A stretch of DNA of 64,000 nt from Dictyostelium discoideum (Eukaryota): assembly GCA_000004695.1 (NCBI GenBank), contig CM000155.2, positions 3,520,001 to 3,584,000 of the forward strand, given 5' to 3'. This document shows, piece after piece, positions 52,844-59,013 of this stretch. How positions within the stretch are numbered: position 1 is the stretch's first letter; every line of letters starts with the position of its first letter. The translations under genes and the position numbers were made by a program. The notes under the pieces were generated by a model. It worked only from the letters and a program-made list of their open reading frames with translations. It ran no database searches and had not been told where the DNA came from.

Positions 52844-53197
52844 TTAACTAATTTTTAAACCATTTTCAATTTTTGAATCTGGTGATAATAAAATTACATC
52901 TCCTTCTTCTTTACCTAATGCACCTAATACTAAACATTCAGACATAAATTTTCTACCAATTTGTTTCTTTGGAAAATTTACAACGGCAACAATTTGACGA
53001 TTTACTAAATCTTCTTTATTATATCTCTTTGTAATTTGTGCCGAGGATTTACGAATTCCAATGGTTTCACCAAAATCAATGGTTAATTGGTAGGCAGGTT
53101 TTCTTGCTTCTGGGAAATCATCAACTTGGATTATTGTTCCAACTCTCATATCCACTCTTTCAAATTCCTCCCATTTTAAATCTCTTTTATCTTCCAT
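52844..53197 (-). CDS. tRNA-binding domain protein (CsaA/Trbp111/EMAP-II-like OB fold), 117 aa
   Basis: DMRVGTIIQVDDFPEARKPAYQLTIDFGE...RQIVAVVNFPKKQIGRKFMSECLVLGA fits the tRNA_bind (Myf) domain pattern (DLRVGKI...HP.A..LYV..VD.GE...QIVSG......G..V.VV.NL.P.K..G..S.GMLL). Confidence 0.65.
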   Translation of the reverse strand: MEDKRDLKWEEFERVDMRVGTIIQVDDFPEARKPAYQLTIDFGETIGIRKSSAQITKRYNKEDLVNRQIVAVVNFPKKQIGRKFMSECLVLGALGKEEGDVILLSPDSKIENGLKIS

Positions 53198-53519
53198 TGT
53201 TTTTTTTTTTTTTTTTTAAGTCTTTTTAAATTAAATGCCAAATTGGATTTTTAATTTTTAATTTTTTGTTTCGAAACTAAACAAAAAAAAAAATAAAAAT
53301 AAAAAAATAAAAATAAAAAAAAAAAATAAAAAAAAAAAATAAAAATAAAAAAAAAAAAAAAATAAATTAATATTCTGGAATAAGAAAATCTAAAAAAAGA
53401 TACTTGTTTTTTTCTCAAATTAACGAATTTTTTAAAAAATTTATAATATAAAACCTACTATTTTTCTAATAATTTTTACCTTTCATACCAAAAAAAAACA
53501 AACAATTTTAATTTATTTA

Positions 53520-54057
53520 TGAATATGATTAATGAGATCTCATTTTATTTAATTCTAAGGTAGAAAGTTTAAAGCATTATAATAAAAGTAAAGTGTTTAG
53601 TGTCGCTATGTATTACGTTACGTGTTTTTATTAAATTTGTTTTTAATGTTTAAGATTTTTGTCATCCTTCAAAAAATTAGCTTTAACTTAATTCGTTTTT
53701 TTTTTTTTTTGAATTGGATAACGCAATTATTAGTTGCTTCTCCTTGAGATGCTAGATCTCATTTTATTTTTATTTTTATTTTTTTTTTTTACAGGGTCTC
53801 TAAAAGAGGGGTTAGTTTACTTTTTTTTTTTTTTTATTATTTTTTTTTTTTTTTTTTTTTTTTCGAATTTTGAATTGTATTATTACTTTTGATTAAAATA
53901 TGTCCAAGGAGATTTTTGCTTTAACCCATCAATATGAGCAGTGTATATTACTTCCTACTCTTGATCTAGGTCCTCTATGTATTTACGAGCCCTCAGGGTA
54001 TCGGACCGTTGTCCTAGGGTGTGCAAGTCAATCTCTTAACCCTGCACTATCAGGGGC
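53520..54057. mobile_element. GC-richer, ORF-free repeat block ending about 48 bp upstream of tRNA-Phe; putative TRE5-type (tRNA-upstream) retroelement fragment
   Basis: GC is about 40-45% over 53880..54057, with internal direct repeats (AGATCTCATTTTATTT at 53535 and 53750) and poly-T runs. The distance from the block end to the tRNA (about 48 bp) matches the known TRE5 integration position. I cannot recognise the TRE5 module sequences themselves. Confidence 0.3.
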
Positions 54058-54105
54058 CCATTAACTTAATTCGTATTAAAGTGTTAAAAATATAAATTTC
54101 ACTAA

Positions 54106-54179
54106 GCCTTAGTAGCTCAGTTGGTATGAGCGTGAGACTGAAGATCTTAAGGTCGCTGGTTCGATCCCGGCCTGAGGCA
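54106..54179 (+). tRNA. tRNA-Phe (anticodon GAA)
   Basis: Cloverleaf: acceptor GCCTTAG/CTGAGGC (one G-U), D-arm GCTC-AGTTGGTAT-GAGC, anticodon stem TGAGA/TCTTA with loop CTGAAGA, variable AGGTC, T-arm GCTGG-TTCGATC-CCGGC, discriminator A. Confidence 0.85.
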
Positions 54180-54209
54180 ATAATTTCAAAAGAATAATCA
54201 TCGGATCGT

Positions 54210-54221
54210 AAGTTCGATTCC
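54210..54221 (+). promoter_or_regulatory. external B-box (ex-B) downstream of tRNA-Phe
   Basis: AAGTTCGATTCC about 30 bp after the tRNA is a near-perfect B-box (GGTTCGANTCC). Confidence 0.5.
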
Positions 54222-54380
54222 TGATTAGGGATATAACAGTCACTGCAAAAATATAAAAAAGAAAAAGATTGAAAATTAATTCTTTCAATTTTTAAGACCC
54301 AAACTATTCCTTAAACAAATAATCAAATTAAGAAAATTAACCTACAAAGTCAGAATTAGTACTACCAAATATTATACTGT

Positions 54381-57300
54381 AATGGAATGTCAGAGGTTGG
54401 GGCACTGACACCTCCTTCAAAAACAAAACAGACTTTATCAAATCCCAATCCCCCCCAAACTCATTGGCACTAACCATAGTCAATGAACTCAACGCCGACG
54501 CAACACAAGCACACCAGCTATTCCCTGGCTCCATCATTAGCGCAACCAAAAGAGGCAACGGAATAGGAATACTAAACCACAACAACCAAAACATAAAACT
54601 CTCACCAATATTCATAATAGAAGGTAGACTAATAATATCAGACATTCTAATAAAAGATACCACAACGAGAATCTTGGCCATATACGCCCCGGCCCAACCT
54701 GATAAAAGAAAAACACTAGCTTCAACACTAAACAAACACTTCAACAACCAATACCACAACCTAACGTCTAACCCTAAAAAAAACATAGACATCATAGCAG
54801 GCGACTTCAACTGTTTAGACTTCAATGACAATCACACATCAAATGATGACCAAGGCAACTTGACAACACAATCCCCAGATGAGATGGCCACAGTAATCGA
54901 AGCCATCAGAATTTCAAATAACCTAATGGATATGGACCAACTAAATAAAAGACCCACCTTCTCAAGAACGATACACAACACAAACAATAACCTCACAAGA
55001 ATCTTGGAAAGGAGACTAGACAGAATATACCTTAACAATAGCATAATCAACTACAGCCAATTATACTTAAGGAACCTAATCCCCCCAAAAATTAACGACA
55101 TACCTCTATCAGATCACAACTTCCTATCAACCACTTTCACTCTACCCAACATACAGATGAACAAGCGCAGATGGAGATTAAAAAAATCCTCAATCCTCTC
55201 AAGCATAATGCTTAAGAAAATAGACTTCCTACTTAACGATTATTCAAGGGAGCTGTCATCCAACCATAACTCTATTTCCTTCTCTCAACTCAACAGCTTA
55301 CTAAACAAAATAAAACAACTATACACAGAATTTCAAAAACAAAACGACTACAACAATAAGGCAAACATCAAAAATCTAATCTCCCTACTAGAGACAGAAT
55401 TTAAAGACCAAGCCTTCGCAACCCTTTCAGCAATAAATGAATCTAAAAAAAGAGAAGAACAACTTAAACAAGAATTGAACAACTATTGCGAAGAAACCTC
55501 ACTCAAGTACATCTCCGCGAGAATCAAGAAAAGACACAATGATTTCACCATCAACGCAGTAAAAGATGCACAAGGTAGAACAATTAACAAACAGGAATTG
55601 ATCGAAGAAGAATACGTAAAATATTACTCAAATCTTTATGACTACAAAGAAGATGACCCACTATCTCATTACGAAATGTTGGAAAATTGGACAGTGACCA
55701 GGGACTCAACATGGGACAACCTTGAAAATGAATTCACCTCACAAGAAATCCTAGAAGTAATAAAACAACTGAACCCACACAAATCTCCAGGTCCAGATGG
55801 AATTCCAAACTTATTCTACATAACACACAAAGAAAAACTAGCTCCAATACTGGCCTCAGCATTCAACGACACTCTAAGAAATCCTCATCTAATTAGCAAA
55901 AATTACAAAGAAGGCCTCATTATCACGATACCTAAAAAGGGAGACCCCGAACTAATCAAAAACAGAAGACCAATTACACTGGCTAACTGTATATATAAAA
56001 TCCACTCAAAGCTAATAAACAATAGAATAATCCCAATACTAACGAAAGTGATCAACCACAATCAAAAAGGTTTCGTACCAGGCAGATTCATTCTAGATAA
56101 TATCATATCAATGAACGAATTAATCAACTATTGTAATGATAAAAGAATTAACGGAATAATTACACTATATGATTTCGAAAAAGCTTTTGACTCGATCTCA
56201 CACGGTTCAATACTTAGATCACTACAACACATCAACATTCCAACCAATATAATCAACCTGATAATGAATCTACTCACCAAATCTGAAGCAAGAATTGAAA
56301 TTAATGGTAGAACTACTATACCCTTTGAGATCAAAAGAGGAGTTAAACAAGGAGATCCACTATCACCCACCCTGTTCGTCCTTGTAATAGAGGCTTTAGC
56401 TAGAAAAATTTTACAAGATGACCGAATTACTGGCCTTCCTCTAAACAACAGCAACCACAGAGAGAAATTCCAAAGCTTTGCAGACGACTCGGCTTCAATG
56501 GTCCCAGACTCTCAACAACTTGAATTAGTACTACAACACTTCAATTCATTTTGCAAAGCCACTTCCTCAAAACTAAACATCGACAAATCTTCATCAATTC
56601 TTATAGGCAACCCAGACAATACCAACCAAAGAATTCCAATATCTACAAATCCAGAAAGATACTTGGGATACTTCTTCACAGGCAAAGGGATAACAAGAAA
56701 AATGCCAGAAATATTAAACACAATAAGATCATCCTTAGTACTATGGAAAACCACTGACTCAACAATCAAAACCAAAACCAACATCCTCAAAGCATTCGCA
56801 CTCTCTAAATTAACCTACTATTCATATGTAGAGAACTTTAAGGAAGAGGAATTAAACCAAATCAATAAATTAGTCGAATGGTTTTTATCGGCACCAAACA
56901 ACAAAAATGCTAGTGGATTTCAAGTTATTAATTTAATGAGAACCAAAAGAGCAAGATACCCACTAAAAGTAGGGGGCTGGAACATTTGGAATATAGAATT
57001 GAGACAACTGGCGCAGAAACTTTGGATCATAAACCAGTTCATCCTAGCACTAGAAACCAAACAAACAAACTCATCTCATCACAAAAGCTGGGAATATCAG
57101 ATCCAAAAAAACAAATTCACATCCAGATACCTAAAAGAAAACTTAGACGAATGGAACAAAATAAGAATAAAAAAAGCAATCTTCAACAATAATCTCACAT
57201 CCATAAAAAACGAAAATGGACAACCACTTTCACTGGCAGAATGGTATACCACAATTCAAGACCAAAATCCAACCATCCCTAAAACGGAATTCCAATCATC

Positions 57301-58179
57301 TCTAAACTTAAGAGGCTACAGCTATAATCAACTCTTCAACAACATACTGAAGATAAAAGACCCTAAAACAAGAGACACAATGTTTAGATTCCATGCCAGA
57401 TGCCTTCCAATAAACTACCTTCACAACAAACAATGCCCACTCTGCAAAGAAGATATGAGCAAAGACCCATACGGTCACCTGTTCTTCTCATGCAAGAAAA
57501 CAAAACAATTCATAAAAATAAATAAACTCAAAAATTTCATCTATATTACCACAGGCAAAGGTAAAAACTGGCATCATACAAGAATTAGGCAAAATAACAA
57601 TTTCATTAATAGAATAACTCCAAAATTATCACCGACAGCCAAAAAAGATCAAGAAGTGAATGCAGATTACGCCAACCACAGATTCCACAAAGAATACTTT
57701 GAATGGAACTATAAAGCAATAGACTATGATCTAACCAGATCATTCGCATATAGAAACCTAATGGCCCTTATCCTCCACAACATTTGGATTTGGATTTGCA
57801 ATCAAATATACAGTGAAGATCCTTTAACAAATGAATCACTATCATACAGCTCCCTTCTAAAGAAATGGCACAAATTGGCCACTCTAGAATACATCAAAAA
57901 AGCAAAAGATCTGAAAAACTTATCAGCAAAAGACCATAATAATTTCAAAGATCCTAAGATCCTTCTCACCTCAACGATCAAGCTAAGAAAAACAACAGCT
58001 AATTACTATTGTATTCCAGAATCATCTCTCCCAAATATTATATCTTTTGATCAATTCATATGATTAAAATAACCCTTCAGCTTAAATGATAAGCCTATAA
58101 ATAAATATTAAATAAAAACTCGTATTAACACAGATGGACATATATCAATCTTGTTAATCCAATATTAAAAAAAAAAAAA
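54381..58179 (+). mobile_element. TRE3-type (tRNA-3'-targeted) non-LTR retrotransposon, 5'-truncated copy lacking ORF1, with a 3' A13 tail
   Basis: Sits about 200 bp downstream of tRNA-Phe in the same orientation and contains an APE-RT-CCHC ORF2. It ends in an A13 run at 58167..58179. It is flanked by an exact 30-bp direct repeat CAGAATTAGTACTACCAAATATTATACTGT (54351..54380 and 58203..58232), plus a second 20-bp duplication ATATTATACTGTTGATTTAT (58179..58198 and 58221..58240). GC content is clearly above the surroundings. Confidence 0.6.
54464..58063 (+). CDS. retrotransposon ORF2: N-truncated apurinic-endonuclease domain, reverse transcriptase (F-ADD variant), C-terminal Cys-His zinc knuckle
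   Basis: The APE domain is missing its first motifs (it starts around ...RILAIYAP..., ...IAGDFNCL). RT motifs are PITLANCIYKIHSKLINNRI, FVPGRFILDNI, ITLYDFEKAFDSISHG, QGDPLSPTLFVLVIEALAR and SFADDSA. The C-terminal knuckle is CPLCKEDMSKDPYGHLFFSCKKT. The reading frame has no ATG; the track start is a TTG just after an in-frame TGA, consistent with 5' truncation. Confidence 0.8.
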   Translation: MALTIVNELNADATQAHQLFPGSIISATKRGNGIGILNHNNQNIKLSPIFIIEGRLIISDILIKDTTTRILAIYAPAQPDKRKTLASTLNKHFNNQYHNLTSNPKKNIDIIAGDFNCLDFNDNHTSNDDQGNLTTQSPDEMATVIEAIRISNNLMDMDQLNKRPTFSRTIHNTNNNLTRILERRLDRIYLNNSIINYSQLYLRNLIPPKINDIPLSDHNFLSTTFTLPNIQMNKRRWRLKKSSILSSIMLKKIDFLLNDYSRELSSNHNSISFSQLNSLLNKIKQLYTEFQKQNDYNNKANIKNLISLLETEFKDQAFATLSAINESKKREEQLKQELNNYCEETSLKYISARIKKRHNDFTINAVKDAQGRTINKQELIEEEYVKYYSNLYDYKEDDPLSHYEMLENWTVTRDSTWDNLENEFTSQEILEVIKQLNPHKSPGPDGIPNLFYITHKEKLAPILASAFNDTLRNPHLISKNYKEGLIITIPKKGDPELIKNRRPITLANCIYKIHSKLINNRIIPILTKVINHNQKGFVPGRFILDNIISMNELINYCNDKRINGIITLYDFEKAFDSISHGSILRSLQHINIPTNIINLIMNLLTKSEARIEINGRTTIPFEIKRGVKQGDPLSPTLFVLVIEALARKILQDDRITGLPLNNSNHREKFQSFADDSASMVPDSQQLELVLQHFNSFCKATSSKLNIDKSSSILIGNPDNTNQRIPISTNPERYLGYFFTGKGITRKMPEILNTIRSSLVLWKTTDSTIKTKTNILKAFALSKLTYYSYVENFKEEELNQINKLVEWFLSAPNNKNASGFQVINLMRTKRARYPLKVGGWNIWNIELRQLAQKLWIINQFILALETKQTNSSHHKSWEYQIQKNKFTSRYLKENLDEWNKIRIKKAIFNNNLTSIKNENGQPLSLAEWYTTIQDQNPTIPKTEFQSSLNLRGYSYNQLFNNILKIKDPKTRDTMFRFHARCLPINYLHNKQCPLCKEDMSKDPYGHLFFSCKKTKQFIKINKLKNFIYITTGKGKNWHHTRIRQNNNFINRITPKLSPTAKKDQEVNADYANHRFHKEYFEWNYKAIDYDLTRSFAYRNLMALILHNIWIWICNQIYSEDPLTNESLSYSSLLKKWHKLATLEYIKKAKDLKNLSAKDHNNFKDPKILLTSTIKLRKTTANYYCIPESSLPNIISFDQFI

Positions 58180-58280
58180 TATTATACTGTTGATTTATAC
58201 ACCAGAATTAGTACTACCAAATATTATACTGTTGATTTATTTATTAACTATCTTAATCTCAAAAAAATATTTACTCCACA

Positions 58281-58332
<52 letters not shown>

Positions 58333-58830
58333 TTAAATTCATTAAACCTAATAATTACTGTTTATTTCCTTAATGGATAAACATTGATTAATCATTATAA
58401 AAATAAAAAAATAAAAAAAACTACAAAAAAAAGGTAGGAAATCTAACATATTGCCATAATAAATTTGAAATTAATTTATCCCCAAATACTTTTTTATATA
58501 AATTATAAATGTCCTCCATTATAATTTAAAATGAATGATGATAAATAAAAAAAAATAAAATGTCTATTAATTATTTGTTTAAAGATTCGATAATATTATT
58601 TGATTAAAAAAAAAAAAATAAAAATATTTCATATGAAATTTACTTTTCTAAAAAAAAAAAAAAAAAAAAAAAAATATTTGTTTTCAAAAAAATTCTAAAA
58701 AAAAAAAGGTTATTTAGAATTGGATTTTTTTGGTTAATTTTAAATAAAATAATTATAAAAATTAATTTTAGGCGTCTCATTTAATAGGTTATTTATATAC
58801 TACAAGAATAAATTAAAATTTTATTGGTGA

Positions 58831-59013
58831 TTATATTTTATCTGATTGGTCGTCAGAATCTAAAAATGATTCAAGTTCTTCTTTGTTTGGATTTTCAATA
58901 ACTATATTCTCTATTGTTACTTCTGAACCAGTATTTGATTCTGATATTGAATTATTTTGTATATTATTATTTATATTATTATTTTTATTATTATTATTAT
59001 TATTACTATTATA

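Follow-up and report, generated by a model that had tools for sequence, protein, structure and literature searches.

That TRE3 elements lie beside tRNA genes is textbook knowledge for the Dictyostelium discoideum genome, and the copy described here belongs to the AX4 reference. TRE3-A (formerly Tdd-3), which inserts downstream of tRNA genes in this species, is the most abundant TRE3 and has been described as an element of ~5.2 kb with two ORFs, the second of which is reached by a -1 frameshift (PMC5911963, PMC5006619). The canonical target distance of TRE3 is ~100 bp (PMC5006619, PMC5911963), and a role in its targeting has been attributed to the external B box (PMC5911963). The copy found in the window, i.e., the whole 64-kb stretch of DNA that was analysed, resembles TRE3-A in its APE-RT-zinc-knuckle ORF2, in the ORF1 and -1-frame ORF2 of its full-length relatives, in its oligo(A) tail, its short, variable target-site duplication (TSD), its orientation, which is that of the tRNA, and its target, which lies at ~100 bp in alleles lacking the element; it also falls in the most abundant TRE3-like cluster. 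It differs from TRE3-A in being 5'-truncated by ~1.46 kb, in lying 189-201 bp from the tRNA gene in AX4, and in its target, which carried, or came to carry, a tandem duplication of 38 bp with ACAC as filler.

Two other systems are relevant. As in target-primed reverse transcription by human LINE-1, the site is A/T-rich at the nick, the TSD abuts the poly(A), 5' truncation is common and junctions are occasionally complex; in addition, an APE alignment profile made from the N-terminal region of the window ORF2 and five homologs matches L1 EN structures (E=2e-31), and the window copy has the catalytic residues at every invariant column. Unlike LINE-1, TRE3 targets tRNA genes, has an ORF1 unrelated to that of L1, and accesses ORF2 via a -1 frameshift. 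Tandem duplications made by end-joining (NHEJ or polymerase-theta type) are comparable to the exact 38-bp direct duplication of this locus, with its 4-bp untemplated or unassignable filler and its borders without sequence homology, and another D. discoideum assembly (L004, see below) has a further such duplication, whose filler is longer. In contrast to ordinary end-joining products, the duplication in the window may be tied to retrotransposon nicking.

A 5'-truncated TRE3 copy downstream of tRNA-Phe

The element is an ordinary 5'-truncated copy of an already known TRE3, with a minor junction curiosity (Table 1). As first proposed from the sequence alone, it is a non-LTR element of TRE3 type lying downstream of tRNA-Phe, both being on the + strand, and it is truncated at its 5' end. 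When aligned with full-length copies, it matches them only from position 1459 of ~5257 onwards, the 5' UTR, ORF1 and the ORF1/ORF2 overlap (~1.46 kb in all) being absent. The homology runs from 54381 exactly to the poly(A), with 99.6% identity to positions 5498-9295 of the full-length copy in L001. The latter is ~5.25 kb long, with an ORF1 of 416 aa and an ORF2 in the -1 frame that is open for 35 codons without an ATG, an architecture that agrees with the published description of TRE3-A (PMC5911963). Organism and family were recognized from protein matches to D. discoideum RT proteins, which form a 79-member cluster at at least 90% identity. Judging from architecture and cluster abundance, traits that are consistent with TRE3-A but not exclusive to it, the subfamily is most likely TRE3-A.

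Table 1. Features of the tRNA-Phe locus and of the TRE3 copy (positions in the window; s1, s2 and s3 are successive parts of the 38-bp host unit)
Feature	Position	Strand	Basis
Separate, older-looking insertion upstream of tRNA	53696..54062	-	fragment headed by poly(T) on + strand
tRNA-Phe, anticodon GAA, targeted gene	54106..54179	+	ARAGORN
Internal B box GTTCGATCCC within tRNA-Phe	54159-54168	+	motif scan
External B-box-like motif GTTCGATTCC, starting 32 bp past tRNA 3' end (54179)	54212..54221	+	motif scan
Left 30-mer, first 30 bp (s1+s2) of left 38-bp host unit, up to 5' junction	54351..54380	+	single copy in empty alleles L002, L004
Left true TSD copy AAATATTATACTGT	54367..54380	+	abuts element 5' end; twin abuts poly(A)
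Unambiguous TSD core TATTATACTGT, left copy	54370-54380	+	junction comparison
5'-truncated TRE3, 3.8 kb, probably TRE3-A	54381..58179	+	homology to full-length copies
ORF2 remnant, 1226 codons + stop, no internal stops	54383..58063	+	ORF analysis
APE domain of ORF2	~54383-55120	+	alignment of catalytic columns
RT domain of ORF2	55928-56671	+	Pfam RVT_1, E=1e-33
CCHC knuckle CPLCKEDMSKDPYGHLFFSC, ORF2 residues 1018-1037	57434-57493	+	motif scan
TRE3 3' UTR, ending ...CCAATATT	58064..58166	+	identical 3' end across all surveyed copies
Poly(A) tail, A13; final 1-3 A's possibly TSD instead	58167..58179	+	sequence
Right true TSD copy TATTATACTGT, directly abutting poly(A)	58180..58190	+	junction comparison
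s3, TGATTTAT, last 8 bp of left 38-bp unit, split from s1+s2 by TRE3	58191..58198	+	repeat analysis
Filler ACAC, 4 bp, between 38-bp units; missing from empty alleles	58199..58202	+	sequence
Right intact 38-bp host unit CAGAATTAGTACTACCAAATATTATACTGTTGATTTAT; first 30 bp are the second 30-mer	58203..58240	+	repeat analysis

The ORF2 remnant encodes, in the order that characterizes TRE3, an APE endonuclease, a reverse transcriptase and a C-terminal zinc-finger, and differs from the L001 copy by 4 amino acids. ORF2 starts with WNVRG, which is the first of the conserved APE motifs, and homology to full-length copies begins 2 nt upstream of its W codon; all catalytic positions are there (N2, E35, Y101, D141/N143, D213, D244-H245), and the initial view of an APE domain without N-terminal motifs was wrong. 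The in-frame stop ahead of ORF2, previously read as TGA, is in fact a TAA at 54380-54382, made of a target T and an element AA. Similarly, the missing ATG (the earliest in-frame one is at 54884) had been taken as evidence of truncation, but is no sign of it because full-length copies also lack one, their ORF2 sitting in the -1 frame and overlapping ORF1. Although ORF2 itself is still intact, the copy has neither promoter, ORF1 nor an entry to ORF2, and is dead on arrival.

The external B-box-like motif GTTCGATTCC is also kept in the two alleles without the element, L002 and L004. In the window, the TSD starts 189 bp and the element 201 bp past the tRNA gene, beyond the published range of 40-150 bp. 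A ~77 bp spacer indel of the AX4 lineage relative to these empty alleles, where the homologous target position is 103-109 bp downstream of tRNA-Phe, would account for this. A separate insertion on the other side of the tRNA gene lies between two copies of AACTTAATTCG (53685-53695 and 54063-54073), 33-43 bp 5' of the gene, and is putatively of TRE5 type, as suggested by its position, orientation and TSD. It is absent at the L002 and L004 alleles; copies of it are found in L001, L010, L012 and L013.

Junction repeats and the target-site duplication

The 64-kb window contains two exact copies of the 30-mer CAGAATTAGTACTACCAAATATTATACTGT and no more, at 54351-54380 and 58203-58232. The 20-mer ATATTATACTGTTGATTTAT has identical copies at 58179-58198 and 58221-58240, and becomes a 22-mer when the preceding A's are included. 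These repeats and the A13 tail had been spotted by the sequence-only reading, and both junctions are base-for-base identical in L003 (GCA_054883475.1), which is from the same lineage but was assembled independently; the structure is therefore no assembly artefact. The empty site of L002 and L004, two other D. discoideum assemblies, has one copy of AGAATTAGTAC(TAC)CAAATATTATAC. As had been supposed, the 30-mer is thus host target DNA and not element sequence; the element homology begins exactly at 54381. The TRE3 insertion is polymorphic in D. discoideum: AX4 and one further assembly have the filled site, and two have the empty one.

The TSD itself is canonical: it is 11-14 bp long, (AAA)TATTATACTGT, and abuts both ends of the element. 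In six other TRE3 copies surveyed, the longest word shared by the flanks is 10-18 bp long and begins in the final A's of the tail; the corresponding word in the window is AAATATTATACTGT, which extends precisely to the 5' boundary. Of the two 30-mers, the left one is in direct contact with the element at its 5' end, and the right one does not touch the poly(A) but begins 23 bp after it. The 3' junction is thus really composite, as had been claimed, but the TSD is not unusually long, and a TSD of at least 30 bp is not supported in view of this 23-bp offset and of the 11-14 bp copies at the element ends. The best parse of the 30-mer is 18 bp from a 38-bp host tandem duplication plus 12 bp of real TSD, and excising 54381-58190 gives back a perfect S-ACAC-S tandem, where S is the 38-bp unit.

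Origin of the 38-bp duplication

The explanation that we favour, with a probability of about 0.6, is that TRE3, most likely TRE3-A, was inserted by target-primed reverse transcription into the left unit of a pre-existing 38-bp tandem duplication of host DNA. The target would have been one unit of the segment CAGAATTAGTACTACCAAATATTATACTGTTGATTTAT, arranged as S-ACAC-S by a duplication of end-joining type. As read from the junctions, the bottom strand would have been nicked next to the A-run, between ...CCAAA and TATTATACTGT, and the poly(A) RNA reverse-transcribed from the 3'-OH of the nick; synthesis or joining would have ended 2 nt short of the ORF2 codons for WNVRG, hence a copy without 5' UTR, ORF1 and frameshift region, and a cut of the top strand 11-14 bp downstream would have produced the ordinary TSD (AAA)TATTATACTGT. 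TRE3 would thereby have divided the left unit, with the 18 bp upstream and the 12-bp TSD recurring in the right unit as the 30-mer, and the TSD and the following 8 bp recurring as the 20-mer. The flanks would then resemble a 30-bp duplication because TRE3 sits inside a 38-bp one.

In the right unit, s1, s2 and s3 are contiguous, while s1 and s3 of the left unit are 3.8 kb apart after insertion, so that the duplication cannot post-date the insertion on this chromatid and must have arisen before or during it. We infer that it was a separate event that preceded the insertion. Support comes from L004, which shows that filler-type duplications occur in this DNA without TRE3: its version of this intergenic region has, ~300 bp away from the tRNA, a duplication with a 74-bp period (48 bp exact, ~16 bp filler). 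As no allele with the 38-bp duplication but without TRE3 was found among the assemblies compared, the order of events is deduced and not observed. A chance landing of the insertion in such a duplication is a priori unlikely, at ~1e-3 per insertion. These odds are less forbidding given that the genome has hundreds of TRE copies and that the locus was picked as an oddity.

Duplication and insertion could also stem from one complex integration event, which is possible but doubtful. Here, the nicks made by the TRE3 endonuclease would be 30-38 bp apart, and the RT or a repair polymerase would add GTGT, copy 19-22 nt of target (s2-s3) and switch to the RNA at the A-run; in a variant, breaks on two sister chromatids would be joined unequally. 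The 30-mer would then be the TSD, and the 23 bp TATTATACTGTTGATTTATACAC a filler at the 3' junction. Consistent with this, the left 30-mer exactly abuts the 5' junction, the A-run offers microhomology at the switch point, and complex local duplications are rare (only ~3-4 intergenic cases in ~270 kb looked at), so that finding one together with a TRE3 insertion hints at a connection. Furthermore, in L016 one TSD encloses a complex TRE3 3' end (element-A35-64 bp-152-bp fragment-A45), suggesting that TRE3 reverse transcription may string several templates inside one TSD, and non-templated nucleotides are documented at TRE5-A junctions (PMC5391098). However, these extra nucleotides are documented at the 5' and not the 3' junction of TREs (PMC5391098), several ad hoc steps are involved, and a stagger of 30-38 nt is unseen in the surveyed copies. 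Priming would have to occur between AAAGT and C instead of at the A-run, with copying of an internal target stretch, and it would be a coincidence that the poly(A) is followed by a canonical TSD with AAA just ahead of the left copy, the very arrangement of the six other elements. That the 38-bp duplication and ACAC are a product of the TRE3 integration machinery, through a start on target DNA and a switch to the poly(A) RNA or through unequal joining of sister-chromatid nicks at a TFIIIC-marked site, is a tentative suggestion.

An abortive earlier TRE attack on the same tRNA-linked hot spot, in which two nicks at a distance of 38 bp were repaired by fill-in and end joining, leaving ACAC at the joint, before a later TRE3 insertion succeeded, is improbable. 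Structurally, such a scar is a sub-case of the favoured explanation, an earlier duplication followed by an ordinary insertion, with both steps caused by retrotransposon machinery. The site does fall within the range in which TRE3 integrates next to a tRNA gene, this gene was also struck from its 5' side, the orthologous tRNA-Phe loci of related taxa bear TRE-like 3' ends of their own, and TRE-TRE tandems due to repeated targeting are documented (PMC5391098) and also present in L001. Nevertheless, the nicks that generate TSDs give 3' overhangs that would re-anneal, a fill-in duplication requires the opposite nick polarity, and the L004 duplication, with filler and without TRE, makes a generic end-joining origin sufficient.

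Finally, there is virtually no chance that the 30-mer is internal TRE3 sequence (a motif common to the 5' and 3' UTRs, as the sequence-only reading had considered might be the case), an assembly artefact or a chance repeat: the only resemblance in the element, a 73%-identical stretch at 58017-58046, is partial, whereas the 30-mer is absent from both ends of full-length and truncated copies elsewhere and present without any element in the empty alleles, the L003 junctions are identical, and 0/100 shuffled sequences had any match with up to 3 mismatches permitted (0 expected), so that homology boundaries, empty alleles and L003 together refute it.

Implications for TRE3 integration

As the element is a known one, the overall significance of the locus is modest. 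The polymorphism between filled and empty alleles pins the TRE3 target exactly, ~105 bp downstream of tRNA-Phe, and the junction is a warning for automatic detection of TSDs: a program that relies on the longest repeat in the flanks would give 30 bp, when the real TSD is 11-14 bp. To our knowledge, TRE3 integration has never been dissected experimentally. No second offset duplication was found at TRE3 junctions in a sample of eight copies; if recurrent, such duplications would inform on the mode of TRE3 integration. Should the duplication have been made by the integration machinery, TRE3 integration would be able to generate compound, offset target duplications, and the locus would document, from a natural insertion, how TRE3 spaces its nicks and switches templates.

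A 5'-truncated TRE3 copy downstream of tRNA-Phe(GAA)

The host is Dictyostelium discoideum AX4, with DDB_G0293956 and redA as neighbouring genes and D. discoideum proteins as best matches of the long ORF. This ORF encodes an RVT_1 domain (E=1e-33) and a CCHC knuckle at residues 1018-1037, and its nearest relatives form a cluster of 79 D. discoideum and D. citrinum proteins with at least 90% identity. One member of the cluster led to L001, a locus with full-length copies; window 54381-58179 is 99.6% identical to L001 5498-9295, the homology opening exactly at 54381 and closing in the poly(A). At full length the element measures about 5.25 kb and comprises a 5' UTR, an ORF1 of 416 aa and an ORF2 in the -1 frame, a layout equal to the published architecture of TRE3-A, including its -1 frameshift (PMC5911963). 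From this architecture, the length of about 5.25 kb and the size of the cluster, the largest of the TRE3-like ones, the subfamily is most likely TRE3-A.

The window copy starts 2 nt ahead of the codon for W in WNVRG, and about 1.46 kb of 5' sequence is missing. In L001, 35 open codons precede WNVRG in the ORF2 frame, with no ATG among them. The APE domain, which the sequence-only reading had described as lacking its N-terminal motifs, is instead essentially complete, since all catalytic columns (N2, E35, Y101, D141/N143, D213, D244-H245) are present when it is aligned with five homologues that carry APE. The profile of this alignment matches LINE-1 endonuclease structures (E=2e-31) and was required for the match, as searching PDB with the APE region as a single sequence gave noise only. 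Truncation, oligo(A) tail, orientation and target-site duplication (TSD) are all typical of TRE3, and the element is an already known copy in the reference genome, from a family that is well described.

Features of the tRNA-Phe locus, in window coordinates
Feature	Position	Strand	Remarks
tRNA-binding-domain gene	52844-53197	-	117 aa
Direct repeat AACTTAATTCG	53685-53695, 54063-54073		flanks the upstream insert, 33-43 bp upstream of tRNA
Upstream insert	53696-54062		367 bp; opens with T15 on the + strand
tRNA-Phe(GAA)	54106-54179	+	ARAGORN
Extra spacer sequence	54240-54325		about 77 bp
30-mer CAGAATTAGTACTACCAAATATTATACTGT	54351-54380, 58203-58232		exact copies
TRE3 copy	54381-58179	+	5'-truncated
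ORF	54383-58063		1226 codons, 0 internal stops
Tail	58167-58179		A13
20-mer ATATTATACTGTTGATTTAT	58179-58198, 58221-58240		exact copies
A50 tract	58286-58335
A50-linked sequence	58277-58402		74% identical to L001 11718-11844

Target DNA and target-site duplication

The 30-mer, 20-mer, poly(A) and tRNA-Phe of the sequence-only reading are all present, and chance is excluded as a source of the repeats: the matches are exact, the 64-kb window holds no further copy of the 30-mer when up to 3 mismatches are allowed, and the number of matches expected from shuffles is 0. Orthologous loci were fetched via the neighbouring tRNA-binding-domain gene. The independent assembly L003 (GCA_054883475.1), 99.5% identical to the window, carries TRE3 with junctions that are the same base for base, which rules out an assembly artefact. 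Of the 15 substitutions that separate L003 from the window in 53000-59000, 14 lie inside the TRE3 copy (range 54787-58039), and in the flanks homopolymer lengths are the only differences. This clustering suggests that TRE3 copies underwent gene conversion, or that one of the two assemblies contains assembly or polishing errors driven by the repeat.

The element is absent from L002 and L004, two assemblies labelled D. discoideum and 92-96% identical to the window, in which a single copy (...AGAATTAGTAC(TAC)CAAATATTATACGATTGGATTAC...) stands 103-109 bp downstream of the tRNA. The TRE3 insertion is polymorphic within D. discoideum. Since the empty alleles hold one copy, the repeated sequence is host target DNA, as had been proposed; that the 30-mer might be canonical UTR sequence, repeated inside TRE3, is ruled out by the homology boundaries and these alleles. 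The target position in the empty alleles lies about 100 bp from the tRNA, the distance that is canonical for TRE3 (PMC5006619). The AX4 distance is 189-201 bp because, between the external B-box-like motif and the TRE3 target, the spacer has about 77 bp absent from L002 and L004. This extra sequence contains a small palindrome, ATTGAAA...TTTCAAT.

The flanks can be parsed into a 38-bp host segment S, composed of s1 (CAGAATTAGTACTACCAA), s2 (ATATTATACTGT) and s3 (TGATTTAT), the order in the window being ...AAAGT s1 s2 / TRE3-A13 / s2 s3 ACAC s1 s2 s3 TTATTAAC.... In the intact right unit s1+s2 form the 30-mer; s2+s3 form the 20-mer, and removing 54381-58190 restores a perfect tandem S-ACAC-S. 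Directly after the poly(A) comes TATTATACTGT, and the same bases, with AAA before them, stop precisely at the 5' junction. A TSD is defined by its contact with both element ends; the 11-14-mer has this contact and the 30-mer does not, so that (AAA)TATTATACTGT is the real TSD, a canonical one of 11-14 bp. In a survey of seven copies of the same family (L001b, L005-L007, L009, L010 and L015), the longest word common to both flanks has a length of 10-18 bp and opens among the final A's of the poly(A) in all but L005, whose TSD is an ambiguous A-rich run that is not scorable. In the window, by contrast, the longest common word is 30 bp and starts 23 bp past the poly(A). The composite flank of the sequence-only reading thus consists of real repeats, but not of an unusually long TSD. 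The sole unusual feature is a small host duplication around the target, which gives the look of a long composite TSD.

Timing and origin of the duplication

The right unit has s1, s2 and s3 contiguous, and with the element in place 3.8 kb separate s1 from s3. The duplication therefore cannot be younger than the insertion: it preceded integration or accompanied it. We favour, at a probability of roughly 60%, two steps: an end-joining-type event would first duplicate S around ACAC, and TRE3 would then enter the left unit (a variant in which the first step is an abortive TRE attack is included). All TRE3 junction features are then canonical. A separate event is also supported by a second tandem duplication with filler in the same intergenic region. 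It lies at L004 9030-9151, some 300 bp to the 3' side of tRNA-Phe, has a period of 74 bp with 48 bp exact and a filler of about 16 bp, is absent from L002 and has no TRE nearby. No S-ACAC-S allele devoid of TRE3 was found, L002 and L004 having one copy only and L003 having TRE3, so we infer the order of events. In L011-L014 (D. cf. discoideum and D. citrinum) tRNA-Phe is kept with unalignable flanks, and redA-bearing Logan contigs, about 2 kb long, end short of the site.

That a single complex integration event made duplication and insertion together is rather unlikely, even if two observations speak for it: complex duplications of local DNA are rare, with very few in about 270 kb, and TRE3 can form compound 3' ends. 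The composite TRE3 at L016 1082-6460 consists of a near full-length element, A35, 64 bp of other sequence, a 152-bp TRE3 3' fragment and A45, enclosed by one direct repeat, TATG(AAGATA), and suggests that templates were switched in the course of one integration. Templating of ACAC from TRE3 was considered from the likeness of the junction TATACAC-C-AGAATT (58196-58209) to TATACACAGAATT at 55320-55332, which is treated as chance (P about 0.04-0.09 by simulation). Recombination between two tandem TRE3 copies is ruled out, as it cannot yield ACAC followed by an intact S unit.

Other tRNA-linked repeats and recurrence of the family

The insert upstream of tRNA-Phe, a minus-strand poly(A) element by its T15, is absent from L002 and L004; further copies of its left half are present in L001 (three in tandem), L010, L012 and L013. 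The insert looks like a 3' fragment of TRE5 type; its BLAST against the TRE5-like element of L017 gave low-complexity matches only. TRE3 on the 3' side together with a TRE5-type element on the 5' side, the apparent arrangement of tRNA-Phe here, has been reported at 13% of the tRNA genes of D. discoideum (PMC5006619). The A50-linked sequence, which follows the tract and has its L001 counterpart about 170 bp to the 3' side of a tRNA-Thr, may be what is left of another tRNA-associated repeat. L017 521-5800 (ACTFIT assembly), past the right edge of the window, is a non-LTR element on the minus strand, upstream of tRNA-Arg(CCT); it is TRE5-like in position and orientation, with an ORF2 about 30% identical to that of TRE3.

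L005-L008 are four full-length copies from D. citrinum (GCA_054859145.1). Their ORF2 calls, of 1059 aa, are identical, each copy has a tRNA gene of its own 110-133 bp upstream, and their nucleotide identity to the D. discoideum copy is 94.6%; these sequences suggest recent activity of the family in D. citrinum. The related taxa of L012 and L013 have their own short poly(A)-ending fragments, such as ...GTTAATCAAATATTA(n) in L013, at about 100-150 bp on the 3' side of the orthologous tRNA-Phe, which indicates independent, recurrent targeting of this tRNA gene.
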